From NCBI GenBank assembly GCA_902790475.1, contig CADASG010000004.1:4373-68372 (forward strand): a stretch of DNA of 64,000 bases. Direction: 5' to 3'. Shown piece by piece: positions 6,624 to 64,000 of the stretch (positions are counted from its first letter, which is position 1; each line of letters begins with the position of its first letter). The translations under genes were made by a program, and so were the position numbers. A model generated the notes under the pieces. The model saw only the letters and a list, made by a program, of their open reading frames with translations, was not told the DNA's origin and ran no database searches. Source of the DNA: an uncultured Ruminococcus sp. GTDB taxonomy: Bacteria > Bacillota > Clostridia > Oscillospirales > Acutalibacteraceae.

Positions 6624-6635
6624 ATTGTAGATAAA

Positions 6636-11911: not shown

Positions 11912-11925
11912 AAAGAGGTGAGGTA

Positions 11926-14554: not shown

Positions 14555-14556
14555 TA

Positions 14557-15843: not shown

Positions 15844-16482
15844 GTCGCCCTCCACGCGGAGGGCGTGGATTGAAATAATCTCAACCGTGATTTCCAGTTG
15901 ATTATCTGACGTCGCCCTCCACGCGGAGGGCGTGGATTGAAATCGCTCCTTAATTTAAGGTCATGTATTCAACCTGTAGGTCGCCCTCCACGCGGAGGGC
16001 GTGGATTGAAATAACAGTACCCATCCCCGTGAGTACGACGGAAGTCGTCGCCCTCCATGCGGAGGGCGTGGATTGAAATACTGCTCCGCCTCCAATTCCT
16101 CAATCTCTACCTCTGTCACCCTCCACGCGGAGGGCGTGGATTGAAATCGTCGCGGGTTTGCCGCAGAATGCTCAGCGCTTGTGTCGCCCTCCACGCGGAG
16201 AGCGTGGATTGAAATTTTGAATAACGCCAACAATACGTTATATTTGGTCGTCGCCCTCCACGCGGAGGGCGTGGATTGAAATTTCATACAATCTGTAGCT
16301 CAATTTCTTCACCTCGCGTCGCCCTCCACGCGGAGGGCGTGGATTGAAATAAGTTCATTGTTAGAGCAAGCAAGGCGGATGAGGTCGCCCTCCACGCGGA
16401 GGGCGTGGATTGAAATAACAGTACCCATCCCCGTGAGTACGACGGAAGTCGTCGCCCTCCATGCGGAGGGCGTGGATTAAAT
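15844..16482 (+). CRISPR. Type I-C CRISPR array, 10 repeats and 9 spacers (33-36 bp)
   Basis: 33-bp repeat GTCGCCCTCCACGCGGAGGGCGTGGATTGAAAT starting at 15844, 15911, 15980, 16047, 16115, 16183, 16250, 16318, 16384 and 16451 (last one degenerate, 32 bp). Confidence 0.98.
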
Positions 16483-23800: not shown

Positions 23801-23979
23801 ACAGCGCCCAAATCATTTCCGTCATATGTGTACCTTTCATCAAGCGCATGTGCCGCGTTTGCCCACTCGTTCGCGCCGACGTCATCGGCGGTCGAAGCGG
23901 CAAAGCCTGTCATAACGGCTGAAGAAGCCAACATGCAGACTGCCAGTACCGAAGAAATGATTTTCTTTGTACATTTCAT
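20818..23979 (-). CDS. pulA: Type I pullulanase (CBM48-GH13_14) with MucBP-like domains, internal dockerin and C-terminal CBM26-like domain
   Basis: Signal peptide; NWGYDP, GFRFDLMG, WGEGW, CHDN catalytic motifs; dockerin GDVNKDGKINIDD...DFDCDGKVTISD; C-terminal PYLWIWG...W...GWF. Confidence 0.92.
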   Translation of the reverse strand: MKCTKKIISSVLAVCMLASSAVMTGFAASTADDVGANEWANAAHALDERYTYDGNDLGAVYSPEKTVFKVWSPTATKVILNRFATGSDSETGAKDLGQITMEQLMENGQWTGVWTATVSGDIADTYYTYTITAADPKSGELQTAETQDVYSVATGVNGKRSMVCDLSKTDPEGWDNDSHVLLDKPTDSQVWEVHVKDFSYDKSSGVSDANRGKYLAFTETGTKLNDSGSISTCVDYLKQQGITTVQINPFYDFQSINEAGDDDQFNWGYDPQNFNVPEGSYSSDPYNGNVRINECKQMIKALHDAGISVVMDVVYNHTYSCDKSDSCFQATVPFYYHRVDSKGAFSNGSGCGNEVSSDYAMTRKYIIDSCMYWVNEYHVDGFRFDLMGLIDTETMNLIREEMDKVDTRLTIWGEGWTGGTSVHESKTCTGAAFYPATQANAAQLNERIAFFNDKIRDGIKGSVFDTTEKGFIAGNATHYVDVANGVRANTDSNGWKSKAPSQTVSYAACHDNATLYDQITSSATKGEYGVRDALGVKLSKMTAAMLNTAQGATFYLAGDEMARTKYGDTNSYKSSPEINKINWQNLVEYADLVSYYQGMMMIRKNFSPFTAADNSYYDSFDFLGKALSGMRNSLNYVVTNDKEGEWKKVAVMHNGAAGNATVDVSSTGVTEWVIIANGDTAGLNAIEEKSGKSFTVPGNTSIIAVDKESFEACALKDERGKVIVNYVNEKGDQLTAPMVILGNIGSGYETAPSSAVPNTLEVKTVQGNASGTFTADTQEVTYIYTNYVPEALKNFGDVNKDGKINIDDVTAMQKALAGSTAYDISDCDFDCDGKVTISDATMLMKYLAGYSVAQGSAVVNHYYFDASGNKKTLTSEVKLTGRVGDPYTTTDYRVMGYTLDKTKLPENAEGVFSYGNTVKVDYYYVSGSLDVKLHLKHTTDNWTPYLWIWGSDLAGKDKGNYTGGTWNKQPPAPLNEETGWFEYDFTYSGAGTYNLIVTNATKDQTRDYKGFVDNELWIIIDDSKISSGKYLNIYTDNPETNPNAPTAQYYIPE

Positions 23980-26928: not shown

Positions 26929-27069
26929 AATAATGCCTCCTGCCAGCATATTTATTATATAATTGTATCATAAAACAGGGGTGAATTTAATTCTGTATAA
27001 GAAATTAATTTCTGTCACATATGTTTTTAATGTAGAAAATCAAGGATTATTTTAGTGTATTTTGACGAT

Positions 27070-48064: not shown

Positions 48065-50968
48065 TTATCCCGCGTTTAGCCAGGTTCCGTTAGAGTATAT
48101 CGCGCTCAGGTAAGGAATGTTCACTAAATCCTGTTGTACCAGTTTAGTTGAGCCGTTCAGGAAGATACAGCAGTTATATTCCTTCGGACAGGTGTATTTG
48201 TAAATATTGCTTCCGTCGTTAGTCATCTGCGTTCCGGGCCAAGCGACCATACAATCGTTCGTTCCGTATTTCCACACATAAATACAGGGATTTGAAGCGT
48301 TGAAATAGTTGTTGTCAAGGTAGATCGTTCTGTAATTCGCGGGGTCTTCCTCAACGACGTTCACGTATTCTCCGCAGTGGTTTCCGCTTACCGTCATATG
48401 AGCGACAAACTTTTGAATGAGCGTTGCGTCAGATACACTGACCGAATTGCTGCTGTTGACGTCCGCGGCTTTCAGAGAGTCACCGGTAAGCGTTGTGATA
48501 GAGGAGCTGTGACGCTGGATCTCGGTGGCGTCTCTGATGTCGATAACGCCGTCAAGGTTTACGTCACCGATAAGTACACGCTGAGGAGCGGTAAAGCTGC
48601 TCCAATCCGTGAGGTTGGTGAGCATCATGTCGGAGCCGTTTATCTCAAGTCCTTTGGCGCCCGACGCAGGGTACTGCGACGAGCCGTTGTTGAAGATCGC
48701 CAGTCCGTTTTCCGCAAGCTCGTCGGGAACCTCATAAACGTAGTAGCCTGTTGAGTTATCGTACTCCATCGCCTCGCCCGGCCATGAGTGGTTGCATGTT
48801 ACGGGGCTTGTTGACTCGTCATAGACATAAACGTTAACGTTGCTCCAGTTGTAACGGGAGTTGTCAAAGTAGATCCTTGTTACCGCGGCAGGATCCTTCT
48901 TTTTGTAGGTGAAGGTTTTTTCAACGGTTTCCTCGGAGTTTGTCGCGGTCATAGTCACGTTAAAGGTCGTGCCTACCGCGATCCCGTCGCCGATCTCAAA
49001 TGTCTGACCGTTGACTACTCTGAACTGTGTTCCGCCGTTTATGCTGACCATCGCGTAGTCTGCTCCGCGCAGTGAAACGGTCACGGTCTGGCTGTCATAG
49101 AATGCAGGCTTGCCGCCTTTGAGCGACATTGAAATCGTGGGAACGGGTCCCGAAATCAGGATAACTCCCTGAGCACCCGAGTTAAAGGTCACTCTGCCGT
49201 TTTGAACCACAGCCGTTATGCCGTTATACTCGTTTGTCAAGGTCGCGCCGTTGTTGAATACAGAGGAAACATCAATCGTGATGTTGGTGTTTACGGGAGC
49301 GCCCACTGTGCATACAACGTTGTCGCAGGTCACGCCGTCGTCATAGGTTCTCGAGAAGGTGTAGCCTGTAGAGCTGTTGTAAGCTGAGATCTGATTGTGA
49401 GCGCCTGCGCCAACCGCAACGTGATTTGAGCGGAATTTGCCTACCTTCCGCCAGTGCTGAAGCACGCTTTGGTTGATGCTGCTCCAGTTCATGTCGCTTC
49501 TCAGCGAATGACCGCTGCCGCCGTTGCCGTCAAAGTCCATGTTGGATACAAGTCCGCGGTTCGTTTCGTCGCCGTAGAAGATCTGGACGCCGCCGGGCAG
49601 CAGCATCAGTGACGTACCCTGATAGTAAAGGTCGTTGCTTCTCGCGAGGTTTGAGTCGTGCGAGGAAATATAGGTGAGCATATTGAAGTCAAGGTCGGTG
49701 TTAATGCTGTTTGCGTAGTTCTGATAAATGCCGTTGAGACTGCTTACTCCGTCAATGCTTCTGCCTGAGAACGAGAAGTTGATCATCGAGTCAAAGCCGC
49801 CTGATGTAAAGTAGCCGTCCTTATTCAGACCGTGACCCCAGCTTTCGCCGGTCATCCAGAAGTCCTCATCCCAGTCCGCGCCGGGGGAGGTGGGGTGGTT
49901 TGTTCTCCATGTGTTGAGAGCGGTTACGCACTTGGTTTTGAGCTTGTTCCAGGAGGAAAGCTCAACGTGCTTTGCGGTGTCGCAGCGGAAGCCGTCAACG
50001 CCGTATTCCTCAACCCATTCCGAAAGCCATGTCGTGAGGTAGTCGGAAACGGTTCCCAAACCGTTGTACTTCGCCATTTTTTGGTTATAGGTTCCCTCGC
50101 TTTGCCATTTTGTTTTCAAAATCTGAGGGACAGAGACATTGGTCGTAGATTCGGTGCGGAAGTCGGGCAGGCTCGCAAGACACTGAGTCAGTTCGCTGCC
50201 GTTGTTTTCCGTATAGCCCGAAAGTCCCGCTCTTATCCAGTCGGGTCCCCACCATCTGCCCCAGGAGGTTGCAGATGAAGATGAATTGTAATCAATATAG
50301 CTGTTGATGCTGCCGACGTTGTTTATCCTGTACATATAGGATTCAGCCATAGTGCGGTTGCTGAAAGCTCCGTAGTTGTACTGGATCATGTCCTTGACGT
50401 TTGTATAGCCTGCGTGGTTCATAACAACGTCAAGAATAACGCGGATATTATGTGAGTGAGCAGTGTCTACCATGGTCTTGAACTCCTGCTTGGTGCCGAA
50501 GTTCGCGTCGGTCTCGGTGTAATCGAGCGCGTAGTAGCCGTGATATGCGTAGTGAGCGAAGCCTGCGCCCGAATCGACGTATCCGTGGATCTGCTCGTAG
50601 GGAGCGGAGATCCAAATCGCGTTGACGCCCAAATCGTCGAAGTAGTTTGCGTTGATCTTTTGGGTTATGCCCGCGAAGTCGCCGCCGTGGAAGGTACCGG
50701 GATTGGTGTCCCAGCCGCTGATAGGCGAGTTGTTTTGATCAAGGGCTCGTCCGTAGGAGTGGTCGTTTGAGCTGTTGCCGTTGTAAAAACGGTCAGTCAG
50801 CAGGAAATAAACATTCGCATTGTCCCACGAAAAATCATCGGGAGACTCAACGGTTCGTTCGGTTCCTACCGGCTCCGCCGCTTCTGCCGCTCCAGCAGTG
50901 AAGCCTGAAACTGACATTGAAGCGATCATAGCCAGACTCAGCGCGGCGGAGATAATTTTCTTTTTCAT
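48065..50968 (-). CDS. Secreted alpha-amylase (GH13, MalS-like) with CBM26-dockerin-CBM26 tail
   Basis: Signal peptide; GFRCDTAKHVE, MTGESWG, ISSHD catalytic triad; RIYFDNS..NWS.V.VY.Y and TIYLDN...C.YVW CBM26-like units flanking dockerin GDVNLDGVIDIRDAT. Confidence 0.9.
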   Translation of the reverse strand: MKKKIISAALSLAMIASMSVSGFTAGAAEAAEPVGTERTVESPDDFSWDNANVYFLLTDRFYNGNSSNDHSYGRALDQNNSPISGWDTNPGTFHGGDFAGITQKINANYFDDLGVNAIWISAPYEQIHGYVDSGAGFAHYAYHGYYALDYTETDANFGTKQEFKTMVDTAHSHNIRVILDVVMNHAGYTNVKDMIQYNYGAFSNRTMAESYMYRINNVGSINSYIDYNSSSSATSWGRWWGPDWIRAGLSGYTENNGSELTQCLASLPDFRTESTTNVSVPQILKTKWQSEGTYNQKMAKYNGLGTVSDYLTTWLSEWVEEYGVDGFRCDTAKHVELSSWNKLKTKCVTALNTWRTNHPTSPGADWDEDFWMTGESWGHGLNKDGYFTSGGFDSMINFSFSGRSIDGVSSLNGIYQNYANSINTDLDFNMLTYISSHDSNLARSNDLYYQGTSLMLLPGGVQIFYGDETNRGLVSNMDFDGNGGSGHSLRSDMNWSSINQSVLQHWRKVGKFRSNHVAVGAGAHNQISAYNSSTGYTFSRTYDDGVTCDNVVCTVGAPVNTNITIDVSSVFNNGATLTNEYNGITAVVQNGRVTFNSGAQGVILISGPVPTISMSLKGGKPAFYDSQTVTVSLRGADYAMVSINGGTQFRVVNGQTFEIGDGIAVGTTFNVTMTATNSEETVEKTFTYKKKDPAAVTRIYFDNSRYNWSNVNVYVYDESTSPVTCNHSWPGEAMEYDNSTGYYVYEVPDELAENGLAIFNNGSSQYPASGAKGLEINGSDMMLTNLTDWSSFTAPQRVLIGDVNLDGVIDIRDATEIQRHSSSITTLTGDSLKAADVNSSNSVSVSDATLIQKFVAHMTVSGNHCGEYVNVVEEDPANYRTIYLDNNYFNASNPCIYVWKYGTNDCMVAWPGTQMTNDGSNIYKYTCPKEYNCCIFLNGSTKLVQQDLVNIPYLSAIYSNGTWLNAG

Positions 50969-51115
50969 TTGAATCATCCTTTCATAAATTATTGCGGTTT
51001 TTTACGGGTTGCGCCGTACCCATTGAGTGCATTTTGATTCATAATAATTATAACATAAATTCACCGAAATTTCAATACAAAATTGTTTTGTTTTGTTGAT
51101 ATTCGGTATCAATAT

Positions 51116-53696: not shown

Positions 53697-54666
53697 TTAG
53701 TTAAGCAATGTTTGCAACCATGGCAGTACTGTAGGAAGTATAGTAGTTACAACAAATACTAAAATTTCACTTAAATCAATATTTAATAGTGATTTTTGTT
53801 TTTTATCTGAAATTATAGATTCAGAATAATAATTTGTGATATAATATCTTGCGATGTATATACTGCTAAAAAAGAGCTGCAAGAAACATTGCTATTATCA
53901 GAATTATTCCTCCAGAATATCCTGCTAAAGCGAATTCTACATTATATTTTGTAGTTGCACGATAATCCGAGAGAAACGCTGTTGCTACTGAAATCATTGA
54001 ATAAATGCCAAAGAAAACACAAAGCGTACAGCTGCTTTTCAAAATATTAAAAATATCTTTTGTTTTTTCTGTATCTTTCGTTGTTACTCCTTTTTTTCGA
54101 TATGAACAAATCGTAAACATGTATATAATTATTGAAATAAAAAAGTGTACTGACATTGACAGAACAAAACAGATTAATAATCCATAGTACCATATTCCAA
54201 CTCCAACGAGTGAATACCAGTATACTATATTTTGCGATTCCGAGACATGATAAGCATTTGTAATGAAAAATATACCAGATGCAAATCCAATTATTATTGA
54301 ACCAATTAACGTCCATACTCGTAATAGTTGAACCGTTTTTTGTAATTTTTTATAATTATTTACTCTTATGTTCTCAAATTCTCTCATTCTTCCGCCTATA
54401 TAACTTAAGAATTTTCCAGATGCAAAATAAATAAAAAACAATTGATAAACTAAAACAAAAGAATTAGTCAAATCGTCAAAAATTCCAAAATATTTTACAT
54501 TTTTTTGGATTTGCGTATTGTTTAGTTCATGAATAATTGCATCGCTATTCAATAATATAATAATAAAAATAGCCAAAAGAATAAAAGGAATAAAAATATA
54601 GATCATTCTTCTACATGTTCCTTTGTCGTGCCAAAGCCAATTATATAAAGTATTACCATAAAACAT
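53697..54666 (-). pseudogene. AT-rich membrane protein gene apparently split by a frameshift in a T6 run
   Basis: ORF 53866-54666 stops at CTT TTT TAG. Removing one T joins it to the 53697-53882 frame (FSSIYIARY...LPWLQTLLN*). About 7 hydrophobic segments; GC ~23% in a counted 60-mer. Confidence 0.55.
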
Positions 54667-55234
54667 TTTGTTACCTCTTTCATTGTTTTTTTAGTTTTTT
54701 ATTATTATCTTTTTTCAAATTCAAAAAAAGATAAAATATCGTTTGAAATATCACATTGAAGAATTAAGACGTTTTTCTTCTACTTAAGAATACAGCGCAA
54801 ATGTGTAATCTGTTTTGTTTTTTATCAATTCTTTCGCTTTTCTCTGGGTTTAATTTGTTTGTTTTCCTTGCAAATGTTTCTCTGACAAGGTGAAACGACA
54901 AATGATGTGTCAATGATAGTTGTAGAATGTGTGATGATAATGTTCTTTTCTAACTCCTTTCTATAGACGATAAATAACTGTTTTTATTATGCCAGTTTTT
55001 TGTAAGGGCTTTTATGATAAAGCCAAATATCTTTTTTAGGCACTCTATCTCCAAGCGACAGTACAAGAAAACGCATAAAACTCATATGGCTATTGATCAG
55101 GCATTATGTTTGTGCAACCGATAGGATTCAACCATTTCTGCAAATAGATTCATTTGTCATTATCACTATCGCTTTCTGATGGTTATCCAATATCATATTA
55201 TCTATTTTTGTAAGTTTTTTAGGTTATCTATATA

Positions 55235-56905
55235 TCACTTTTTGTTTTTCAGTTTCGTGACTGCGAGGGCGGTCACTCCGCCGACTGCCGCTATTACTGC
55301 CAGACTTTTTACTATGGCTTTTCTTACGAAGGGCACGTTATAGTCAAGCGTGGAGTAGGAGGGATTGATCATGTAGGGAAGCAGCGGCATAAGGAGCTTG
55401 CGGCTGCGGCTTAGAATATCATGCTCGATATGCGGCTGCTTGGAAAGAACCATTGAAGCGCGGCTTTGTGACTGATAAGGTTCCCAGTCCAAGCCTTTTG
55501 CGGCAGGCTTGCCGCTGCGCGCAAAGCTTGTCCACAGCTCCATGACTGTATCGGACAGCGCTTCGTCGGCAGGCTGACCCGTATAAAGAGTTTCTTCTGT
55601 ATTTCCGAAAACATATGCGAGCTCCACCGCGTGACACGCCTTGCGCAGTGGAAGTGCGGATTGGACAGTCCAGTAGTACATATAAACGCTGCCGCCGTTT
55701 TCAGAATGTCCCTCTGCCTGAGCAACGGCAGGAAGGCGGAACATCATTTCGTTATAAAACTGCGCCATCTTCCACATGCTGTGTCCGCTCATGCTTCTGA
55801 AAAAGAGCTCCACGCGCATTTTTCCGCTCTTGTTCAGCACCTTCATGTCGTTTTCAAATTTTACCGGGATACTGAAACGGAAAGGAACCAAGCCGCCGAT
55901 CTCACCTATCCAATAGTTCATCTCGTCCGAGTTTGTGCCTATCAAAATATCAATGTCGGATGTTTCTCCGTTTCTATACGGAAGGTATGGGTCGAAGGGG
56001 ATCAAACGCCCGTCGCGCTGCGGAAAGTTGTTGTATTCATTGAGCTTTTCATTGAGCGTCATAAGCTCGCTTTCGCTCAGCGCCAGTAAATCATCAACAG
56101 CTTTGGCTCGGCTTGCGCGTATCAAGCGCCGTGTGAACTCCTTGCACTCATCCTTTGAAAAGGTCAGGGCAACAGAGCCGCTTTGTGCGATAATTCGGCG
56201 AAACAGTCCCTTTGCTTTCGGAATAACAGGCAAAAGCGAAACGCTGCCGCCTCCTGCCGATTCACCGAAAACAGTGACGTTGTAAGGGTTACCGCCGAAA
56301 TTCGCGATATTTTGTTGTATCCACCGCAGGGCTTCGATCTGGTCAAGCAGACCGAGGTTCGGAGCGTCGGGATAATTTTCTCCTCCCTTTAGGTATGAGA
56401 GATCGGTAAAGCCCATCAAGCCGATTCGGTAGGCGACCGTGACCAGAATAATATCAGGGTGCTTTTCGACAAGGTTTTTGCCGTCGTACATCGGGTCGGC
56501 AGTGCCGCCCCAGCCGTATGAGCCGCCGTGAAAAAATACCATCACGGGTTTGTCGGCGGTTTTATCGTCGGCACTGTGCCAAATGTTAAGGTAAAGGCAG
56601 TCCTCACCCTGCGGATAGTATGACGCCTGCTCGGTTTTCCATTCGGTTTGAATTGGAGATTTTCCGTTGTAGTAAGCTTCAAACACCCTGTCGTCGGGCA
56701 AAACCGGCTCGGGAGCCTTCCACCTGAGTTTTCCTACAGGCGGCTTTGCAAAGGGTATCCCTCGGAATACCAAGGTATTTCCCGAGCGGGCTCCTACAAA
56801 GGTTCCGTTTACGCATTTCGCGGAAAGCTCTTTGTCATAATCTTCGGTTATTACGCGGTTTTCACCGTAGCTGCTGCGAATAGCAGCTATTGCTTCTGAT
56901 GTCAT
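55235..56905 (-). CDS. Type-B carboxylesterase (p-nitrobenzyl esterase-like) with C-terminal hydrophobic tail
   Basis: FRGIPFAKPP, EDCLYLNIW, HGGSY, FGESAG nucleophile, GTNSDE, CHAVEL. Confidence 0.92.
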   Translation of the reverse strand: MTSEAIAAIRSSYGENRVITEDYDKELSAKCVNGTFVGARSGNTLVFRGIPFAKPPVGKLRWKAPEPVLPDDRVFEAYYNGKSPIQTEWKTEQASYYPQGEDCLYLNIWHSADDKTADKPVMVFFHGGSYGWGGTADPMYDGKNLVEKHPDIILVTVAYRIGLMGFTDLSYLKGGENYPDAPNLGLLDQIEALRWIQQNIANFGGNPYNVTVFGESAGGGSVSLLPVIPKAKGLFRRIIAQSGSVALTFSKDECKEFTRRLIRASRAKAVDDLLALSESELMTLNEKLNEYNNFPQRDGRLIPFDPYLPYRNGETSDIDILIGTNSDEMNYWIGEIGGLVPFRFSIPVKFENDMKVLNKSGKMRVELFFRSMSGHSMWKMAQFYNEMMFRLPAVAQAEGHSENGGSVYMYYWTVQSALPLRKACHAVELAYVFGNTEETLYTGQPADEALSDTVMELWTSFARSGKPAAKGLDWEPYQSQSRASMVLSKQPHIEHDILSRSRKLLMPLLPYMINPSYSTLDYNVPFVRKAIVKSLAVIAAVGGVTALAVTKLKNKK

Positions 56906-56925
56906 TTCTTTCACCGTAAGGTTGT

Positions 56926-58695
56926 CTATATTGTAATGGTAATGTTGTTTAATTCCATCGTGCTGAGATACTTGATATCCTTTGCCATTCCGCACACCAT
57001 ACGGATACCGATGTTGCGTGTCTTGTCCTCGTTCTCGTGGAGCTTCAGCCACTCTGTGGGGTCAAATTTGGGACAGTTATCTCTCATTCTCAGCATCCAT
57101 CCGCTGTCAAGACGGATCACGCGCACGTCGATACTGCGCTTTTTGTTACCGTCAAAGCCGAACTGAATGATGTTGTTGCTCAGTTCCTCAACGAACAGTG
57201 ACAGCATCATGCTTTCCTTGGGAGTCGCGCCCTTTTCTTCACAGAATTCTCCCACCGTGGAGGAAGCCGTCACCACGTCTTCTGCCTTTGTTATTGAAAA
57301 GTCAAGCAGATCATCCTCGGAAACACCGAACGGTTCTTTGAGGAATAAATAATTTTTTGCGCAAAAAGGTATACCGCGTTTTTTAACCGCTGCCATGATA
57401 ATGATCAGAATAAGGTTAAGCGACTCGCCGATCAGGAATGACCACCATACTGCGTCGGTATCAAGCACGCCGAACAGTGCAAGAGCAGGGATCACTATAA
57501 ACGGAAAGTTTACAAGGAAACAGATGACGTCTGACATAACCATTCGTCTCATTCCCTGCGTATAGTTGATAAAGGCGACGTTCAGACCGTACACAATGAT
57601 ACTGAGCGCGTAGATTCGCAAGCCTCTTGAAGCAAGCTCGACCATCTTTGCGCCGTCCGCAGAGCCGAATGCGCCAGCGATGGGGGCGGCAAATATCAGC
57701 AATATCGCACTGAGGATACCGCCGACTACAAGCGTAGTCCTGATCGTAACTTTAATCAGCGATTCGGCGGCTGTTCTGTCCTGCTCGCCCAGGATCATTC
57801 CGGCTATCATCGCAGTAGTCATGGCGACGCCGAGCATTGTTGATGAAGTGAAGTTGAACACTGTATTGACTACACCGAGAGCCGCCACAGCCGTACTTGA
57901 CAGCACGGAAGCAACCATGATCTGATTCAGTACCGTGTTGCGCAGCATGGAGGAAGCGGAACCGATCGCTGAGGAGGAGCCGATCGCGAAAATCTCTCCC
58001 AGATCCTTCATTCTTAATCCCTTGAATGAGAATTTGAAAATAATATCCTTTTTTGTGAAATGCAGCAGCATGATCACCAGGGCTGCAAAATAGCTCAGCG
58101 AGGTGGTGAGTCCAATGCCGAGCATACCGCCGTGGATCACCAGAGCGTTCACAAGGTCTCCGGCGATATCCAAAAGGGTCATCACCACGACTGCGACGAT
58201 CACGCGGTTCGGGTCTCCGTCAAGGCGCATGAGCGAATTGAACTCAAACAACAGCAGAACGCAGGGAAAGGAAAAAACCATACCGAGCAGGTAATCGGAG
58301 GTGGGGGCGAGAAGATGAGCGGAATTGCCTCTTGCGCCGAGCAGCACTCCGATCGGTTCTCTGAACACCAGCACTCCTGCCATCATAACCGCCGAGATAA
58401 CTGCCGTAGCGATCATGCACATCGAAAACGCGCGCCTTGCTTTTTGCTTGCTGCCTGCTCCGAGGTGCTGCGCACAGATGATCTGAGCGCCCGTTGCCAG
58501 AATTCCGCTGAAAGCGGTGGCAAGGTTGATGATAGGAGTGACCAATCCGTATGCCGCCATGCTGTCGGGACCGAGAAAACGGCCGATAACAATACCGTCG
58601 ATCACAATGCCGATCATTGTGGCGACCGCCGCCAGAATGATACTGATCACGGAATTGCGGAAAAGTCTGCTTATAATTTTTCCGTTATTCTTCAT
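56926..58695 (-). CDS. MATE efflux transporter fused to C-terminal RsbW-like HATPase domain
   Basis: IDGIVIGRFLG...AAYGL, 12-TM MATE pattern; C-terminus EELSNNIIQFG...RMRDNCPKFDP...NIGIRMV. Confidence 0.85.
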   Translation of the reverse strand: MKNNGKIISRLFRNSVISIILAAVATMIGIVIDGIVIGRFLGPDSMAAYGLVTPIINLATAFSGILATGAQIICAQHLGAGSKQKARRAFSMCMIATAVISAVMMAGVLVFREPIGVLLGARGNSAHLLAPTSDYLLGMVFSFPCVLLLFEFNSLMRLDGDPNRVIVAVVVMTLLDIAGDLVNALVIHGGMLGIGLTTSLSYFAALVIMLLHFTKKDIIFKFSFKGLRMKDLGEIFAIGSSSAIGSASSMLRNTVLNQIMVASVLSSTAVAALGVVNTVFNFTSSTMLGVAMTTAMIAGMILGEQDRTAAESLIKVTIRTTLVVGGILSAILLIFAAPIAGAFGSADGAKMVELASRGLRIYALSIIVYGLNVAFINYTQGMRRMVMSDVICFLVNFPFIVIPALALFGVLDTDAVWWSFLIGESLNLILIIIMAAVKKRGIPFCAKNYLFLKEPFGVSEDDLLDFSITKAEDVVTASSTVGEFCEEKGATPKESMMLSLFVEELSNNIIQFGFDGNKKRSIDVRVIRLDSGWMLRMRDNCPKFDPTEWLKLHENEDKTRNIGIRMVCGMAKDIKYLSTMELNNITITI

Positions 58696-58727
58696 GGAAT
58701 CGTCCTCCATAGGTTCGGGATACTGAA

Positions 58728-58853
58728 GGCAACACCGCACAATTCAAGGCGCACGGCTTGCTTGAATCTTATTCCGTCAGCTTGCCCAAAAAATCTCGGC
58801 AAGGCGACAGCCTTACCTCAATTTTCCGCACACCTGAATTATGCGGTATTGCC
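58728..58853. mobile_element. 126-bp MITE-like element with 19-bp TIRs and 4-bp TSD
   Basis: TIRs GGCAACACCGCACAATTCA / TGAATTATGCGGTATTGCC (17/19); flanked by TGAA at 58724-58727 and 58854-58857; 97-bp identical copy at 6527. Confidence 0.85.
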
Positions 58854-58877
58854 TGAATAGTCTACGCATGAGTTTGA

Positions 58878-59729
58878 TCAATCCTTATTGTTGTTGCCTG
58901 CGATGGTTATGATCAAGTCAAGCACCTTGAGGTACAGCCACAAAATCGTAAAGGAAAGTCCGAACGCCGCCTGCCACTCATATTTTTTCGGCAGCTTGTC
59001 GTTTACAACATGGTCGATCGTGTCAAAATCGCAAATAAGGAAAAGAGCTGCAATGATGATAAATCCAATCGAAGCGGCAATTGAGAGTGCAAAATTGTTT
59101 TGTATCGTCTTAACAAGCGGCTGAACAGCCGGAATAAACGATCCGATAAAGGTAAATAGGGAAGTAGCGATCATGGTGACAAACAGAGTTGTGATCACCA
59201 TTTTGAATTTCTTTGTGACACGGACCACTCCCGTTGTGTAAAGGATCGACATAACGGCAATGATCAGCATGGTGATAAGCAGCGCCAGAAAACCGAGGTA
59301 TTCCAGCTTATATGCGCCCAGAACCTTGAACAGCAAAAAAGAAATGAAGTAGCCTTGGCTCGCGCAGTACAGCGCGCCGGTCACCGGGGTCGTGGAGCGT
59401 AAGAAGAAAGCGAGCAGCTGCAGTAAGATACCGGCTAACAGCACCGCTAATAAAACGATTATTTCGGCGTTAGTGACCGAAACCTTGAAGCCTTTGATGT
59501 TAAGAACGGATGACTCGCCTTCTGCGAGCATCTTTGCCGTGATCGCCTGAGCTAAAATACCTACTGCGCTGAACAGCAGAAAGAACATGGTTTTAAGTGT
59601 GATTCCTCCGTAGGTTGCGCAGTTTGAATCGGCATGTTCATCAACGTTATCAAGCCTGCGCATTATCGGGTTGGATGAAAGAAACGATCGTTTGGTTTTT
59701 TGTTTCGTATTGCTTTGCAGTCTGTTCAT
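58878..59729 (-). CDS. Bax inhibitor-1/YccA family membrane protein
   Basis: SSNP..., T..GI..KT..LL, L..DFD.I...V....PKKYEW.AAFGL..T.LWLYL..L. Confidence 0.85.
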   Translation of the reverse strand: MNRLQSNTKQKTKRSFLSSNPIMRRLDNVDEHADSNCATYGGITLKTMFFLLFSAVGILAQAITAKMLAEGESSVLNIKGFKVSVTNAEIIVLLAVLLAGILLQLLAFFLRSTTPVTGALYCASQGYFISFLLFKVLGAYKLEYLGFLALLITMLIIAVMSILYTTGVVRVTKKFKMVITTLFVTMIATSLFTFIGSFIPAVQPLVKTIQNNFALSIAASIGFIIIAALFLICDFDTIDHVVNDKLPKKYEWQAAFGLSFTILWLYLKVLDLIITIAGNNNKD

Positions 59730-59822
59730 TTTTTCCTCACTTTACGGTATATCTTGCGGAAACAGCGGAATTTTCAGGGCTTTCTCCGATATTTCCGCAC
59801 GATGCCGTACCTTTATATGTTC

Positions 59823-62813
59823 TTATTTTTTCCTTGAAAATACGCCCTTGACGGTTTCAAAGAAATTGCGTTTGCTGTTGTATTTTTTGCGCAGCTCGGC
59901 GATGGTTACATCTGTTTGAGAATTGTGAGTAACTAAGCCCTGAGCCGTTTTTACGAAAATATCCTTGAAGCGTTCCATGCTCTCGTCCTCATAGAGGCTT
60001 GCGGTGTAGTCGATCATAAGCACCAGACCTTCGGCACCGTCGAGGATCTCCATGTCGAGGACTGTCTGCGACGCAGCCTGATTCTGACGGATGTCTATGG
60101 TCTCTATGTCCATTTCCTCAAGACCGCCCATGTCGCGAATATCCTGCTGATAGAGAAGATAAGCCGCCTCGCTGCTGCCGACGCGGTTGTGGATATCTAC
60201 ATAGGGGTAGCAGCTGTGCTCAATGCCCTTCTGTACCTGATCATGAACGTCCGCAAACAGCTCGCGCAGAGTCATCTCGTCTTTAAGCCGCACTCCTACG
60301 GGAAGCTCGCGGAACAGCAGACCGACTGAGTTCATAGCGGTCAGATCTTCGCGGCCGTTGTATATCCAGCACAGCTTAATGTCGTTCTTTTTGTTGTAGA
60401 TCGAAATGGAGAGAGCGGCGACAGCGATAAAGAACTCGTTGCGGCTGATTTTGTAATGCCGTTCCATCGCCTTCATCTGCGGCTGCTCGATACCGATCGG
60501 CGCGAACAGCTCGCCCATCTCGTTTTCGCGCGATTCGTGGTCGGTTTCGGGATAACTTGACCACTCCACTCCGTCAAGACGGTTTTCAAAATACTGTCTG
60601 CTTTCCTCGTAAAATTCGGTCTGAGTCTCGTTCTCGCGGTTTTGCAGTATCAAATAATACAGATCGGGGTCGGGCTGCATCCCCATGTACGCCTTTCCCA
60701 CGTTTTGCATAAACACCTTTAGCGAGGTGCCGTCAAAAATCGTGTGGTGAACGTCAAAGAAAATATAGCCGTGTTTTTCGGTTTCAAAGACGCGGCAGCG
60801 GTGCAGACAGCCTCCGATGATCTTAAACGGCCGCACCAGCGCGTCCTTGATATCGGCAAACTCGAACTCGCTGATTTTCTCTACACGGATATCGCTCAGC
60901 ACCTCGGGGGTGTACCGCTGGATGATATCTCCGTCCTGATTGAAATGAAAGGTCGTAAGCAGCGCCGAGTGGTTGCGGATCGCGGTGCGCATCGCGTCAG
61001 CCATTTTCTGCATATCGAATCTTTCCTTGTCGATACGCATCATGGTAAAGAGGTTATACATCGTTGATTTCGGGGTATAGAGCTGATAGTCAACCATGTA
61101 AAGCTGCTCAACCGTCAGCGGATGATCGGTCTCCATTGCGCGTGCGTTTTTTATTTCGGGCGATTCTCCGTCGTCGGAGAGGTTTTTCTCATACAGCTCC
61201 GCGATCTTCTTCGGTGTTCTTCCGCGGAATATCTCGCTTGCATTCAGTCCGGGCAGACCGCTTTCGGTGATAACGCGAATGGAACCGAGAGAATCTCCGC
61301 CAAGCTCATAGAAATCGTCGTTGATACCGAACTGCTCCAGCTTCAAAACGGCAGCCATTGCGTCGCATAGCTTTTGCTGTATCTCGTTCTCGGGAGCGGC
61401 ATAATCGGTTTTGAAATCGGAAGCGTCGGGCTTAGGCAGTGCTTTCCTGTCCATTTTGCCGTTTCTGTTTAGAGGTACCTTGTCGATCTTGATATAGTAA
61501 GACGGTATCATATAGTAGGGCAGACGCTTTGAAAGCGACTCGCGCAGTTGATCACTGTCTACTTCTATGTCAGCGGTGTAGTAAGCGCAGAGGAAGCTCT
61601 TTCCGTTTTCCTCAAAGCCGCGCGCCGCTACCCAGTCAACTCCGAGCACCTGTTTTACGGAGGCTTCTATCTCGGCAGGTTCAATGCGGTTGCCGTTGAT
61701 CTTTATCATATCGCCTGAGCGTCCGAGAAGCACATAGTTGCCGTTTTCGTCAATGCGCGCCAGATCGCCGGTGCGGTACATGCCGCCGCCAAACGCCCTT
61801 TCGGTCTCCTCGGGGAGATTGATATATCCGCGCACAAACGGGTTTTCAAAGCAAAGCTCGCCGATCTCGCCGTTCTGTGCTTCCTCACCGTCCTCGTTTA
61901 TCAGGCTGATTTTTGTTTCTATTTCGGGCTTTCCGATAGGACAGGTCTCGTATGGCTTGTCGATTTTATACACTCCCACGGCAAAGCCGCTTTCGCTTGC
62001 TGCATAGATATTTATGAGGTCAACGTTTTTCAGATAAACATTATTCGCAGGTTCGCTTCCCACAAAAAGCATTCTCAAAAAAGGACCTGTTTGGTTTCCG
62101 AGCATACGCACATAGGAAGGTGTTAGGAAGGTGATCGTGATTCGCTTTTCAACAAAAAACATTTTCAGCGACATGGGATTTTTGATCGTAGCGTAGCTGA
62201 CAATAAAGATTTTGCCGCAGCAGATGCTCAGCGCTTCCAGAATGACGATAACGGAAGCCACAAAATTCATGGGAGCGAGCAGCGCAAGTCTGTCCTTTCC
62301 GTTAAAGGGATTTTCTCCGTTGAGCCTCACCGATTTGATGGCTCTTTCGATATTGCCGTATTCATGAAGCACGCCCTTTGGATTTCCCGTGGTACCCGAG
62401 GTATATATGGCATAAGCTGCGTCATGTTCGTCTGCGAGCCAGTAACCTTTTATGGCTGTGGTCGCCATGATTTTCTCCCAGTTGGCGGCGCTCAGCTCTT
62501 CCTTGCAGCCGCAGTCCTTTCGTATGTATTCAATACGTTCGGGAGCGTATGTATCCTCAACCAGCGCCCATGCCGCGCCCGCTTTCCATACTCCGATCAT
62601 AGCGATGACCGGCATAACTCCGCGCGGCAGGTTTATGAGAACAAAGTCCTCTTTGCCTATCCCTTTATTGCTCAGATATGCGTAGACCCTTCCGCTGAGC
62701 TCGTCAAGCTGAGCGTAAGTGATACCCTTGGTGTGGGCTTCGTCAAAAAGGATCGCCGCGTTAGGCTTTTCCTTGGAGTACCGGTCAAGCAATTCGAGAA
62801 TATTCATAATCAC
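59823..62813 (-). CDS. Stand-alone NRPS-like protein: adenylation - carrier (T) - condensation
   Basis: A3 YTSGTTGNPKG, YRTGD, GRSGDMIKINGNRIE, A10 NGKMDR; T domain DDFYELGGDSL; C domain HHTIFDG; no TE or R domain. Confidence 0.92.
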   Translation of the reverse strand: MIMNILELLDRYSKEKPNAAILFDEAHTKGITYAQLDELSGRVYAYLSNKGIGKEDFVLINLPRGVMPVIAMIGVWKAGAAWALVEDTYAPERIEYIRKDCGCKEELSAANWEKIMATTAIKGYWLADEHDAAYAIYTSGTTGNPKGVLHEYGNIERAIKSVRLNGENPFNGKDRLALLAPMNFVASVIVILEALSICCGKIFIVSYATIKNPMSLKMFFVEKRITITFLTPSYVRMLGNQTGPFLRMLFVGSEPANNVYLKNVDLINIYAASESGFAVGVYKIDKPYETCPIGKPEIETKISLINEDGEEAQNGEIGELCFENPFVRGYINLPEETERAFGGGMYRTGDLARIDENGNYVLLGRSGDMIKINGNRIEPAEIEASVKQVLGVDWVAARGFEENGKSFLCAYYTADIEVDSDQLRESLSKRLPYYMIPSYYIKIDKVPLNRNGKMDRKALPKPDASDFKTDYAAPENEIQQKLCDAMAAVLKLEQFGINDDFYELGGDSLGSIRVITESGLPGLNASEIFRGRTPKKIAELYEKNLSDDGESPEIKNARAMETDHPLTVEQLYMVDYQLYTPKSTMYNLFTMMRIDKERFDMQKMADAMRTAIRNHSALLTTFHFNQDGDIIQRYTPEVLSDIRVEKISEFEFADIKDALVRPFKIIGGCLHRCRVFETEKHGYIFFDVHHTIFDGTSLKVFMQNVGKAYMGMQPDPDLYYLILQNRENETQTEFYEESRQYFENRLDGVEWSSYPETDHESRENEMGELFAPIGIEQPQMKAMERHYKISRNEFFIAVAALSISIYNKKNDIKLCWIYNGREDLTAMNSVGLLFRELPVGVRLKDEMTLRELFADVHDQVQKGIEHSCYPYVDIHNRVGSSEAAYLLYQQDIRDMGGLEEMDIETIDIRQNQAASQTVLDMEILDGAEGLVLMIDYTASLYEDESMERFKDIFVKTAQGLVTHNSQTDVTIAELRKKYNSKRNFFETVKGVFSRKK

Positions 62814-63115
62814 TCACCTTTATTGTAAGTCAGTATTTCATCAAAACCCGTCACCTCAAACACATCGGTGACGACCTCGCTGACGTTGATCAGCCGCATC
62901 TCGCCCTGATTCATCATCACCTTTTGCAGCGACAGCAGAACCCTGAGTCCTGCGGAAGAAACGTAATTGACGTCTTTAAAGTCCAGCACCAGCTTTGTGA
63001 TCCCGTCTAAATTGGGCTTAACACCTGCTTCCAGCTCAGGCGCAGTAACGGTGTCTATCCGTCCGCTGATCGTAACATTCAGTTTGTTTCCCTCTTTTTT
63101 TCTTTTGATATTCAT
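62810..63115 (-). CDS. STAS anti-anti-sigma factor (RsbV/SpoIIAA-like)
   Basis: GRIDTVTAPELE, LDFKDVNYVSSAGLRVLL (phospho-Ser), VFEVTGF. Confidence 0.92.
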   Translation of the reverse strand: MNIKRKKEGNKLNVTISGRIDTVTAPELEAGVKPNLDGITKLVLDFKDVNYVSSAGLRVLLSLQKVMMNQGEMRLINVSEVVTDVFEVTGFDEILTYNKGE

Positions 63116-63549
63116 TTCCTGTTCTCCTTTGCCTTTGTTTTTTCAATGTTTTTCTTTATTTTTAAAATATTTTTTCCGTCCTTGTAGGTGTACTCAACCA
63201 TCGTCATGGTTTTCTTTACGAGGAAGATCCCCAGACCGCCTTCTTTTCGTTCCTGCGCCGAAAGCTTTATGTCGGGTTCAGCCTGTTCCAGCGGATTAAA
63301 GGGCTTTCCGTTGTCAATAAAGGATATCACGACCGCGAGAGGGGATTCCTCCACTTCAAAGCAGACGGTCGCTTTTCCGACGTCGGGACTGTAGGCGTAC
63401 CGGGCGATATTACCGAACAGCTCGTCGATCGCGATAGTTATCTGGATCTGAGCCTTCAAAGGGCAGTCAAGCCGTTCCAGCTCCGCCGTGATAAAATCCG
63501 TTACAGGTTCAATGTTTTCCACTGCCGCTTCAATAGTTAATTCTTTCAT
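63112..63549 (-). CDS. RsbW/SpoIIAB-like serine kinase (anti-sigma factor fold)
   Basis: AIDELFGNIARYAY, IDNGKPFNP, GGLGIFLV. Confidence 0.9.
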   Translation of the reverse strand: MKELTIEAAVENIEPVTDFITAELERLDCPLKAQIQITIAIDELFGNIARYAYSPDVGKATVCFEVEESPLAVVISFIDNGKPFNPLEQAEPDIKLSAQERKEGGLGIFLVKKTMTMVEYTYKDGKNILKIKKNIEKTKAKENRK

Positions 63550-64000
63550 ATCTCTTTACCTCTGTAATGAATACACAACATTGTCAAATCGTCAAACTGC
63601 GGCTGATCCTGAACAAACCTTTGAACGTCCGCGGAAACCGCTTCAAGAAGCTGCTGCGGCGCTGCGTCCTTGTTTTTGTTCAGCGTTGCGAGAAACCTGT
63701 TGTAGCCGTACTGTGACTGCGACCTGTCCTCCGCTTCGGGAACGCCGTCGGTATACACGAAGATTTTTGTTCCGGGTTCAAGCGTGGTCTGTGTTTCCCT
63801 GTAGCTTATCCCTTTGATCCCTCCGACTACAAAGCTGTGCTTGCTTTTATGAAGCTCAAAATCTCCGCCGGCGGTTTTTATGATCGGATATTCGTGACCC
63901 GCGTTAGCGGTTGTCAGGGTACCGTCGCTCAAATCGAGAATCCCCAGCCATACGGTGACAAACATCTCCTGCTGGTTATTCTCGCAAATCTGATTGTTAA
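63546..64000 (-). CDS. PP2C/SpoIIE (RsbU-like) phosphatase, 5' part outside the window
   Basis: EMFVTVWLG, ANAGHE, YTDGVPEA, QFDDLTML; the frame stays open to the window edge (NNQICENNQQEMF). Confidence 0.9.
   Translation of the reverse strand, partial: NNQICENNQQEMFVTVWLGILDLSDGTLTTANAGHEYPIIKTAGGDFELHKSKHSFVVGGIKGISYRETQTTLEPGTKIFVYTDGVPEAEDRSQSQYGYNRFLATLNKNKDAAPQQLLEAVSADVQRFVQDQPQFDDLTMLCIHYRGKEI

Follow-up and report, generated by a model that had tools for sequence, protein, structure and literature searches.

Genes and junctions of the locus

Annotation of the window (the whole stretch of 64,000 nucleotides that was analysed, from an uncultured Ruminococcus sp.) showed seven genes between 55 and 64 kb, all on the minus strand, and Pfam domains placed them and their products where the preliminary description had put them. 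The gene for the PP2C phosphatase (63546 to beyond 64000; SpoIIE, E=6.8e-33) is truncated by the window end after the C-terminal 150 aa. It is followed by an RsbW-like kinase of 145 aa (63112-63549; HATPase_c_2, E=1e-19), a single-domain STAS protein of the anti-sigma-antagonist type of 101 aa (62810-63115; STAS, E=5.7e-16), an A-T-C NRPS (59823-62807/62813; AMP-binding, 1.8e-48; PP-binding, 1.8e-5; Condensation, 3.7e-41), a membrane protein of 283 aa (58878-59729), a MATE protein with a C-terminal HATPase_c_2 domain (56926-58695; MatE, E=1.5e-36; HATPase_c_2, 36.8 bits with a cutoff of 27.4), and a type-B carboxylesterase of 556 aa (55235-56905; COesterase, E=3e-96). The 283-aa protein, for which about 6 TM helices were predicted, had been read as a BI-1/YccA protein; its match is the BaxI_1 family (PF12811, E=2.9e-42), a relative of the BI-1/YccA family.

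The first four genes had been described as chained by ATGA overlaps. True ATGA overlaps were found at the PP2C/kinase and kinase/STAS junctions but not between STAS and NRPS, where a GTGA overlap exists only if the NRPS starts at the GTG at 62813 (996 aa). The alternative start, an ATG at 62807 preceded by the ribosome-binding site AGGTGAG, was the choice of the gene callers (994 aa) and leaves a 2-nt gap after STAS (TGA-tt-ATG). Genes downstream of the NRPS showed no overlaps, with gaps of 93 nt (NRPS to BaxI_1), 182 nt (BaxI_1 to MATE), and 20 nt (MATE to esterase).

The upstream end of the locus was supplied by a near-identical contig (L001), which carries a 228-aa membrane protein and the complete PP2C, with a divergent AAA_28 gene beyond them. 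The complete PP2C is a SpoIIE-family Ser phosphatase of 519 aa (L001 6645-8204) with about 6 TM helices predicted within its first 260 aa, and the gene for the 228-aa protein (L001 5962-6648; 5 TM) precedes and overlaps it. No family match in Pfam or NCBIfam was obtained for the 228-aa protein or for the N-terminal half of the PP2C. In a second contig (L002), six upstream genes have identical products and the MATE fusion and the esterase are absent after BaxI_1; therefore, neither is strictly required at this locus.

A dispersed repeat of about 100-130 nt, given without strand, lies in the spacer between the BaxI_1 and MATE genes (58727-58853). It bears the best terminator-like hairpin of the region on the gene strand (58817-58798) followed by a T-run, and it has an identical 97-nt copy at 6527-6623, further copies in other loci and no match in Rfam. 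Its word depth was very high, with divergent flanks, in the metatranscriptome, the transcript data for the locus being unstranded contigs only, possibly containing DNA. The repeat is probably the boundary between two transcription units and the site of a rearrangement breakpoint.

Conservation among rumen Ruminococcus

The NRPS was found at 69-85% identity in 80 species-level rumen Ruminococcus genomes with its partners kept in at least seven gene orders, which bears out the synteny of NRPS and switch on which the preliminary description depended. The flanks were otherwise unconserved, and every other flanking gene family was limited to 9 loci at most. Of 75 loci, 47 have STAS as the gene immediately upstream of the NRPS. 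Of 64 loci, 52 have the esterase immediately downstream of it, 10 a MATE gene, and 2 neither of these. The PP2C and kinase are present at about half of the loci and the MATE with the kinase-like tail at about a third, where it mostly stands directly before STAS; the fusion is kept down to 63% identity and was also found without the NRPS, there with a STAS gene about 5 kb off. BaxI_1 is an occasional accessory gene (7/32 well-flanked loci). Switch genes were seen in nearly all NRPS subclades.

The reading in which switch, NRPS, exporter, and esterase are unrelated neighbours could draw on tight spacing in one genome only, as in any operon-rich region. Against it, dozens of species have these families around the NRPS, their order shuffled and the flanks unrelated, and because the gene set recurs with differing neighbours the arrangement goes beyond chance. 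This recurrence refutes chance juxtaposition for practical purposes. Judged from sequence comparison, the cluster is conserved and clade-specific, belonging to rumen Ruminococcus that are starch-degrading relatives of R. bromii, and a functional linkage of its switch, NRPS, esterase, and exporter is well supported.

Many loci keep STAS by the NRPS although neither a kinase nor a phosphatase gene occurs within 7 kb, an indication that STAS and not the kinase is the effector. In 7 of the 32 well-flanked loci no STAS gene stands within 7 kb of the NRPS, and several close relatives have the NRPS and esterase only; hence the switch is not obligatory in cis. The sole locus recovered from a clade at 48% lacked STAS over the 5 kb that precede the NRPS, and its downstream side runs off the contig.

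Substrate, exporter and esterase

The NRPS is a stand-alone single A-T-C module with every core motif present and the TE domain absent, and it aligns with LgrA across A-T-C (E=8e-148). Its C domain is divergent, with TycC6 as the best PDB match at only E=9e-13; HH..FDG was retained in every C-domain motif variant listed among the orthologues. The adenylation pocket reads V-A-I-F-F-G-I-F-A-K, in which the alpha-amino-binding Asp235 is replaced by Val, and in an alignment with the LgrA A domains the motif FVAS falls on their FDxS. All 80 orthologues have Val or Ile at this position, and all 80 keep the pocket positions and the GGDSL motif. Since the pocket is without Asp235, the substrate is probably no alpha-amino acid. 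Its absence agrees with an acyl, keto-acyl or aryl substrate and thereby favours the acyl amide or ester that had been proposed over a peptide. A crude motif scan found no PPTase gene in cis.

The MATE part has 12 TM helices, and the RsbW-like domain fused to it as a cytoplasmic tail takes up about the last 140 aa (56926-57345). The domain had been described as a second RsbW-like one and was found as such, but without the look of an active kinase: the N-box is retained, while G1 (DNC) and G2 (RNIG) are degenerate and their glycines are gone. Because of this degeneracy the tail is probably a pseudokinase or STAS-docking domain; a pseudokinase docking STAS fits its motifs better than a second kinase does. 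An AF2 model of the fusion had a mean pLDDT of 79 with an alpha/beta tail. In Foldseek the top matches were PfMATE, DinF, and VcmN, while ClbM ranked 35th and MurJ was a weaker match; the modelled fold is thus closer to drug and metabolite exporters than to lipid flippases.

These proteins could also serve envelope modification, with the NRPS-like enzyme and the anchored hydrolase acylating a membrane lipid or wall polymer by Dlt/MprF-like logic, the MOP-superfamily transporter translocating the product and the membrane PP2C sensing envelope stress. Five of the 8 proteins are membrane or membrane-anchored, some homologues of the MATE fusion also match the Polysacc_synt and MurJ families, and envelope polysaccharides are controlled by other non-sigma partner switches (PMC8256260; bioRxiv 10.64898/2026.04.08.717354). 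The A domain resembles DltA too, about as much as it resembles many NRPS modules. The flanks, however, hold no conserved MBOAT/DltB-like or glycosyltransferase partner, drug and metabolite MATE exporters stand well above MurJ in Foldseek, and the Asp that a D-Ala or Lys substrate would call for is missing from the pocket, which makes this explanation quite unlikely.

The esterase is PnbA-like (B. subtilis p-nitrobenzyl esterase, PDB 1c7i, E=4e-72), with the nucleophile motif GESAG in 60 of 61 orthologues. No signal peptide was found in it; it has a C-terminal hydrophobic anchor, where a TM segment was predicted in 50 of 58 orthologues, and from these features it looks anchored on the cytoplasmic side. 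The order that had been proposed, in which the product is made, exported, and then hydrolysed, is therefore doubtful. Hydrolysis is more likely intracellular because the esterase is C-terminally anchored and coupled to the NRPS (52/64 loci) far more than to the exporter. The same location speaks against a stress-gated antibiotic or toxin, in which a bioactive acyl compound would be made, the esterase would act as a hydrolase for immunity or detoxification and the MATE as a self-resistance pump, and the switch would only set the timing. In favour of this reading, toxin or prodrug clusters commonly combine NRPS, MATE, and hydrolase, the structural matches include ClbM of the colibactin pathway, and in 62 of 64 loci the gene after the NRPS encodes an esterase or a MATE protein. 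Nothing in the esterase, however, indicates an extracytoplasmic location. We consider the toxin reading very unlikely; it is compatible with the regulatory model given below and differs from it on the purpose of the system only.

The partner switch, its output and comparison with known systems

The kinase motifs are intact across 20 orthologues (N-box ELFGN, G1 DNGKPF, G2 GGLG). Against NCBIfam the kinase scored 44 bits for RsbW (cutoff 145) and 24 for SpoIIAB (cutoff 135), and with scores below these cutoffs it is an orthologue of neither. The STAS protein matched TIGR00377 at 79.9 bits (cutoff 53.45), its Ser54 aligns with the phospho-acceptor Ser56 of RsbV (PDB alignments with 4hyl; RsbV structure 6m36), and the motif Y.SSAGLR is kept across 47 orthologues. 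PP2C and kinase were fused as a single ORF in about nine species.

No sigma factor was found between 55 and 64 kb or at the upstream end in L001, in agreement with the preliminary description, and the sole sigma factor of the window is the housekeeping rpoD by dnaG (27.5-28.6 kb). Only 1 of 82 related loci (L045) has an adjacent sigma factor, a sigG-like gene that has an unrelated gene between it and the cluster and no homologue in the other loci. Classical anti-sigma control would have the kinase bind a group-3 sigma factor encoded elsewhere, which transcribes the operon, the switch being merely co-located with its regulon. The RsbW/RsbV type of the kinase and STAS, the presence of sporulation-type sigma factors in these bacteria (the sigG-like gene of L045), and the close relatives that have NRPS and esterase with no switch in cis would fit such control. 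It is nevertheless unlikely: 81 of the 82 loci have no sigma factor in cis, the kinase lies far under both equivalog cutoffs, the part that stays with the NRPS is STAS and not the kinase, and a second RsbW-like domain fused to an exporter makes no sense for sigma control. Because no sigma factor lies upstream and synteny is kept in relatives, the earlier claim that the genes form one functional system whose output is not a sigma factor is well supported.

We put at about 0.5 the probability that the locus is a membrane-sensing partner switch with a small-molecule pathway, not a sigma factor, as its output. In the resting state the kinase would phosphorylate STAS at Ser54 and hold it inactive. 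A signal from the membrane or envelope would be sensed by the transmembrane half of the PP2C and lead to dephosphorylation of STAS, which would leave the kinase and bind its effectors, the MATE pseudokinase tail and/or the NRPS itself, turning synthesis and export on. The NRPS would load a hydrophobic carboxylic acid other than an alpha-amino acid (keto, aryl or fatty type), and its terminal C domain would join the acid to a free amine or alcohol to give an acyl amide or ester. On the cytoplasmic side of the membrane the esterase may act on this compound or a precursor of it, and the MATE would export the compound. The arrangement suggests that a protein phospho-switch directly gates small-molecule production; the direct post-translational control and the chemistry are what we infer. 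That STAS acts directly on the carrier domain is pure conjecture, and comparison of the orthologues gave no T-domain signature separating STAS-linked from STAS-less NRPSs. Precedents exist for non-sigma STAS outputs (PMC8256260), for a biosynthetic enzyme regulated by a partner switch (bioRxiv 10.64898/2026.04.08.717354) and for a STAS-ACP complex (PMC3340395, citing Babu 2010). No description of the present system was found in the literature.

The locus shares with colibactin the logic of an assembly-line enzyme, a dedicated MATE (ClbM), and a membrane-associated hydrolase (ClbP) in one locus. ClbP is a periplasmic peptidase acting after export, whereas the Ruminococcus esterase is PnbA-type without a signal peptide. 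To our knowledge, phospho-switch control is not among the described features of the colibactin pathway.

With stand-alone or terminal-C NRPS modules such as LgrA A-T-C it shares the canonical A, T, and C core motifs, and with keto-acid-selecting A domains (PMC10949194; PMC11355689) the aliphatic residue at the Asp235 position. It differs in being a single module with no KR or TE and a very divergent C domain, and its other pocket residues match no recognised amino-acid code. As in the C-terminal STAS domains of SLC26/SulP transporters (E. coli YchM/DauA) and in MlaB-MlaF, a STAS module would communicate with a membrane transporter (PMC3340395; PMC7367683), and the YchM STAS also binds a carrier protein. 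The arrangement seems inverted here: the transporter, a MATE and not a SulP or ABC protein, bears the putative STAS partner (the RsbW-like domain), and STAS is free and predicted to be phosphorylatable.

Non-sigma STAS systems such as V. fischeri SypE/SypA, Bordetella BtrU/V/W, Nostoc HmpU/V/W, and Anabaena HenR/All4160 (PMC8256260; bioRxiv 10.64898/2026.04.08.717354) act through unphosphorylated STAS on a non-sigma target, with the switch within the locus that it controls, as would be the case here, and the PP2C-kinase fusions in some of the Ruminococcus species are reminiscent of the bifunctional SypE. The published systems govern polysaccharide synthesis, secretion or motility; in none of them is the switch tied to an NRPS, carboxylesterase or MATE, and none has a transporter-fused RsbW-like domain. 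Like Bacillus RsbU/RsbV/RsbW and SpoIIE/SpoIIAA/SpoIIAB, the module comprises a PP2C, a GHKL Ser kinase, and a single-domain STAS with a conserved serine in overlapping genes, and its PP2C is membrane-embedded like SpoIIE. Unlike the Bacillus modules, it lacks a cognate sigma factor, both in the operon and at 81 of 82 related loci, its kinase falls under the RsbW and SpoIIAB equivalog cutoffs, and its neighbours are biosynthetic and export genes. What sets the locus apart is a partner switch kept beside a single-module NRPS, an esterase, and an exporter instead of beside a sigma factor.

Gene layout and surroundings of the cluster

Pfam searches of the window proteins confirmed the domain calls of the preliminary description for this minus-strand gene cluster. 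It opens with a PP2C/SpoIIE phosphatase gene, of which the window has the last 150 codons (from 63546 onwards; Pfam SpoIIE, E=6.8e-33), followed by an RsbW-like kinase (63112-63549; HATPase_c_2, E=1e-19), a single-domain STAS protein (62810-63115) and a stand-alone NRPS with A, T and C domains (59823-62807). Downstream are a BaxI_1 membrane protein (58878-59729; PF12811, E=2.9e-42), a MATE transporter with a C-terminal HATPase_c_2 domain (56926-58695; Pfam MatE in two stretches, E=1.5e-36) and a type-B carboxylesterase (55235-56905; COesterase, E=3e-96). The membrane protein had been called BI-1/YccA; its only Pfam match (to E=0.01) is to the related BaxI_1 model, and it has no NCBIfam match. 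The four genes from phosphatase to NRPS had been described as chained by ATGA overlaps, and these are genuine at the PP2C/kinase and kinase/STAS junctions, but at the STAS/NRPS junction the genes overlap, as GTGA, only when GTG is taken as the start codon. The NRPS start chosen by the gene callers is an ATG 2 bases past the STAS stop, behind an AGGTGAG ribosome-binding site. Intergenic gaps of 93, 182 and 20 nt follow the NRPS, BaxI_1 and MATE genes, respectively.

Two other contigs lengthen the locus: L001, on which the products of six window-encoded genes are identical, and L002, identical in the genes that it shares, including the products of the six genes that precede the MATE gene. On L001, the full-length PP2C phosphatase is 519 aa long, and about six transmembrane helices are predicted within its first 260 residues. 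The start of its gene is overlapped by that of a 228-aa protein with five transmembrane segments, upstream of which lies a divergent AAA_28 gene. Neither the 228-aa protein nor the membrane half of the phosphatase matched any Pfam or NCBIfam model.

Contigs from four bovine metatranscriptomes extend across the entire locus, one of them (5.2 kb) running from inside the NRPS gene through STAS, kinase and PP2C. The contigs, which are unstranded and may contain DNA, weakly support expression of the locus. The best terminator-like hairpin of the region is on the gene strand in the BaxI_1/MATE spacer, which suggests two transcription units, one from the upstream membrane gene through BaxI_1 and the other with the MATE and esterase genes. 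Just downstream of the esterase, the stretch at 53866-55230 is AT-rich (GC 0.36 vs about 0.48 elsewhere), contains a 570-nt non-coding spacer and a 266-aa ORF that matched nothing in Pfam, and falls outside the coverage of the metatranscriptome contigs.

A dispersed element of about 100 nt was found in the window at 58727-58853 and 6527-6625, with a 97-nt copy 100% identical at both sites. Further copies were found at L011 2929-3027, L008 20111-20189 and about 2076-2124 of L001/L002, and in L025 (L008, L011 and L025 being related loci in other genomes). The element has sharp boundaries, and one metatranscriptome contig has the 6.5-kb site without it. Where the flanks have a word depth of about 10-20x in rumen metatranscriptomes, that of the element ranged from several hundred to about 2,600x, and to either side of it many contigs diverge. 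The fold of its minus-strand RNA scores well (z=-2.8) and has a terminator-like hairpin within it. An Rfam scan of 54-64 kb gave no match, so a known riboswitch was rejected as the source of the peak in RNA depth at the BaxI_1/MATE spacer. A leader RNA was rejected as well, because orientation relative to the neighbouring genes differs between the two copies, and the element looks like a MITE/REP-type repeat. L001 and L002 diverge inside it: after BaxI_1, L002 carries lectin-dockerin and DegV genes, with no MATE fusion and no esterase (L002 11896-12960 vs L001 12021-16550, window 55235-58878). The repeat may mediate this rearrangement. A type I-C CRISPR-Cas locus, indicated by Cas3 and Csd1 (Cas8c) genes (window 9521-15438), has one copy of the repeat about 3 kb upstream.

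Dockerin-bearing amylases with CBM26, together with database names, place the organism among the rumen relatives of Ruminococcus bromii. Dockerin-bearing amylases (CBM26, CBM48, MucBP) and a 1439-aa BspA-type LRR protein with a dockerin are encoded at 48065-50977, 20818-23979, 24076-26949 and 71-4390 of the window; surface proteins of this amylosome type are characteristic of starch degraders like R. bromii.

Conservation of the cluster among related genomes

An exhaustive NRPS profile search of 1.8 billion representatives returned four 50% clusters of the same architecture (68%, 59% and 48% identity, plus one fragment), and the NRPS family is therefore narrow. The other matches listed were megasynthetase modules at 26-34% identity, multi-module megasynthetases having swamped the search. 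A scan of one genome per species yielded 80 NRPS loci at 69-85% identity, nearly all from rumen Ruminococcus/Clostridia MAGs, together with two complete isolates. Neighbouring genes were counted with profile HMMs built from clusters and run against six-frame translations of the loci.

STAS immediately precedes the NRPS in 47 of the 75 loci with enough sequence. The gene directly downstream is the esterase in 52/64 loci, a MATE gene in 10/64 and neither in 2/64. In the 32 loci flanked by 6 kb or more on each side, the counts were 25 for STAS, 27 for the esterase, 18 for PP2C, 17 for the kinase, 15 for a MATE gene (11 with the RsbW-like tail), 9 for the 228-aa protein and 7 for BaxI_1. Every other flanking gene family occurred in at most nine NRPS loci. 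STAS, not the kinase, is the part of the switch most faithfully attached to the NRPS.

The synteny check proposed in the preliminary description showed that the NRPS and switch genes stay together in relatives, in several orders and with differing flanks. With TM228 for the 228-aa protein, KIN for the kinase, EST for the esterase and MATE~K for the MATE fusion, the orders were (a) TM228-PP2C-KIN-STAS-NRPS-EST, (b) TM228-PP2C-KIN-MATE~K-STAS-NRPS-EST-BaxI, (c) MATE~K-STAS-NRPS-EST-KIN-PP2C, first seen in locus L006, (d) STAS-NRPS-EST-KIN-PP2C, (e) NRPS-MATE-STAS-KIN-PP2C, (f) STAS-NRPS-EST and (g) NRPS-EST, making at least seven in all. The gene order of the window was found only in its own lineage. 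This shuffling of gene order amid unrelated flanks is strong evidence, of a comparative kind, that the NRPS, switch, esterase and exporter are functionally linked. When the NRPS sequences were clustered by identity, switch genes occurred in nearly all subclades with STAS-less variants scattered among them, which suggests repeated loss or relocation. Compared for a binding-site signature, STAS-linked and STAS-less NRPS orthologues differed at 11 scattered positions, none of them in the T domain, a pattern that carries little information. For the relative at 48% identity (P0351), a metagenome scan gave one usable locus, with a clostripain-like gene and no STAS upstream of the NRPS; a single locus is too little for deeper history.

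In R. vasco JL13D9 (NZ_CP162392.1, L024 8501-9544), a transposase gene (HTH_38 + rve, IS30-type architecture) sits between kinase and STAS, and the locus is a natural polar-insertion variant for comparison with R. hollandia JE7B6.

Switch, sigma factor and predicted chemistry

By sequence, PP2C, kinase and STAS are the three proteins expected in the switch of a partner-switching system of the Rsb/SpoIIA type. The N, G1 and G2 boxes of the kinase (ELFGN, DNGKPF, GGLG) are kept in 20 orthologues, G1 reading DxGxPF across them, and the protein scores far under the NCBIfam cutoffs for RsbW and SpoIIAB. The STAS protein scored above the cutoff of TIGR00377 (79.9 bits); its Ser54 aligned with the phospho-acceptor Ser56 of RsbV, and the surrounding motif Y.SSAGLR is conserved across 47 sequences. 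The N-terminal half of PP2C differs between architectures, a 482-486-aa form aligning with the window-type protein in the catalytic half only. The input side of the switch thus looks modular, and the STAS-NRPS-esterase output looks constant. PP2C and kinase form one ORF in about nine species, such as the 661-aa protein of L008 (5906-7891); single ORFs of this kind are also present in loci L011, L029, L030, L035, L042, L065 and L066. Second, paralogous PP2C-kinase modules, some with STAS or the MATE fusion, lie less than 10 kb from the NRPS cluster on the opposite strand (L008 15644-16826 and 18974-19207; L011 3095-4210; L018 14865-19883), so that in the genomes of these three loci the family of such switches is expanded.

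Partner switches are textbook regulators of sigma factors. To our knowledge, only a handful act on other targets, and these targets are mostly unidentified. The preliminary description had recorded no sigma factor in the visible part and had proposed retrieving the upstream contig, which also proved to be without one. A PROSITE-style sigma-70 scan detected no cognate sigma factor in the locus, the upstream contig or 81 of 82 related loci, and the sole sigma gene in the window is rpoD, adjoining dnaG 27 kb from the cluster. The exception, locus L045, encodes a 259-aa group-3 sigma factor with a SigG-like N-terminus (15621-16400), 0.6 kb past PP2C and beyond an unrelated 145-aa membrane ORF. It is the only sigma factor found near any of the 82 loci, has no homologue in the others and is probably a chance neighbour. 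Because no cognate sigma factor accompanies it, the cluster falls outside the Rsb and SpoIIA sigma-control families. A PADLOC search for known anti-phage defence systems gave no match for any of the eight cluster proteins.

The NRPS aligned with LgrA across A-T-C (E=8e-148) and has the A-domain core motifs A3, A7, A8 and A10, the T-domain serine and the C-domain motif; it has no TE domain. YTSGTTG and GGDSL were found in 80/80 orthologues, and every listed variant of the C motif retains HH..FDG. The C domain is very divergent, its best solved-structure match being TycC6 (E=9e-13). FVAS of the NRPS aligned with FDxS in the A domains of LgrA, which puts Val (79/80 orthologues) or Ile (1/80) where PheA has Asp235, within a conserved pocket signature, V-A-I-F-F-G-I-F-A-K (80 orthologues). 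Asp235 binds the alpha-amino group, and its position is typically aliphatic in keto-acid-activating domains (PMC10949194, PMC11355689). From this replacement, we infer that the substrate is a hydrophobic acid and not an alpha-amino acid; the chemistry of the product is hypothetical. A crude motif scan of the window and 86 loci detected no Sfp-type PPTase.

The AF2 model of the MATE protein (mean pLDDT 79, pTM 0.75) showed twelve helices and an alpha/beta sandwich tail, and Foldseek matched it to PfMATE, DinF and VcmN with target TM-scores of about 0.8-0.85. A MurJ/Wzx-type flippase was rejected as its identity, MATE exporters ranking far higher and ClbM also better than MurJ. The second RsbW-like domain reported on the exporter was confirmed as a HATPase_c_2 fold (36.8 bits, gathering cutoff 27.4) and shares 24% identity with the kinase, but its own ATP-binding boxes G1 and G2 are degenerate. 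The N-box is kept, G1 has changed from DNG to DNC and G2 from GGLG to RNIG, likewise in the family consensus, and the tail is probably a pseudokinase. A search with the tail domain alone returned only fragments of the same fusion; the fusion was also found where there is no NRPS, about 5 kb from an orphan STAS gene.

The esterase matched the B. subtilis PnbA structure 1c7i (E=4e-72), and its orthologues have the GESAG nucleophile elbow (60/61) and a C-terminal hydrophobic segment (50/58) with positive charges on both sides. No signal peptide was predicted, and with the hydrophobic segment this would most simply place the catalytic domain on the cytoplasmic face of the membrane. The missing signal peptide argues against an esterase acting outside the cell after export, and the scheme in which the product is exported and then hydrolysed is hypothetical.

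Proposed mechanism and comparison with known systems

The preferred reading, to which we assign a probability of roughly three in four, is that the cluster is one system in which the switch controls the pathway with no sigma factor in cis. The preliminary description had proposed a switch acting on the NRPS carrier domain and/or the exporter; comparative genomics bears out the linkage and the absence of a sigma factor in cis, and its other elements, direct action of STAS on the carrier domain among them, are offered as hypotheses. In the full post-translational model, for which we consider the odds about even, the kinase would phosphorylate Ser54 of STAS and keep STAS off. The membrane PP2C, perhaps with the small membrane partner, would sense a membrane or envelope cue and dephosphorylate STAS. 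Free STAS would then bind the exporter's pseudokinase tail and/or the NRPS, so that an acyl amide or ester would be made and exported, and the esterase would act intracellularly on this compound or its precursor.

A more specific version, which is speculative and on balance unlikely, makes STAS a phospho-regulated subunit of the NRPS. Unphosphorylated STAS would bind the NRPS and dock on the MATE pseudokinase tail at once, switching synthesis and export together within seconds and without transcription, the binding to the NRPS being modelled on MbtH-like proteins and the YchM-STAS-ACP pair. If true, this would be the first partner switch with a biosynthetic enzyme and a transporter as alternative partners, and the NRPS would be the first one described with a post-translational phospho-gate.

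For the preferred reading of a switch controlling the pathway, comparative genomics names candidate non-sigma targets: an NRPS, an esterase and a transporter with its own RsbW-like docking domain. Among the Ruminococcus that are the main starch degraders in ruminants, the cluster is found in at least 80 species-level genomes, and two cultured, fully sequenced carriers (R. hollandia JE7B6 and R. vasco JL13D9) make the partner of a non-sigma switch directly testable. Its product is probably an uncharacterised small molecule of abundant rumen bacteria, an acyl amide or ester made from a non-amino acid. A natural post-translational gate on an NRPS, if this is one, would be useful for engineering. 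Literature searches on partner switching or anti-sigma factors with NRPS or MATE, on Ruminococcus NRPS and on the isolate names turned up no account of such an association, and a preprint on the two isolates does not mention the NRPS.

Two known arrangements differ from the cluster. The colibactin ClbM/ClbP prodrug logic needs an extracytoplasmic hydrolase after export, whereas the cluster esterase has no predicted signal peptide. Dlt-like envelope acylation has an MBOAT (DltB) partner and a D-Ala-specific A domain, whereas the cluster has no conserved MBOAT neighbour and its pocket lacks Asp235. Others are closer. The YchM STAS-ACP complex shows that carrier-protein binding is possible for a STAS fold (PMC3340395), and STAS-transporter coupling is known from MlaB-MlaF and SLC26 (PMC7367683, PMC3340395). 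The PP2C-kinase single ORFs of several cluster species recall SypE, a bifunctional phosphatase-kinase, and the cluster was likened in its working to the non-canonical STAS systems SypA, BtrV, RbaV and HmpV (PMC8256260). [quoted passage not shown]
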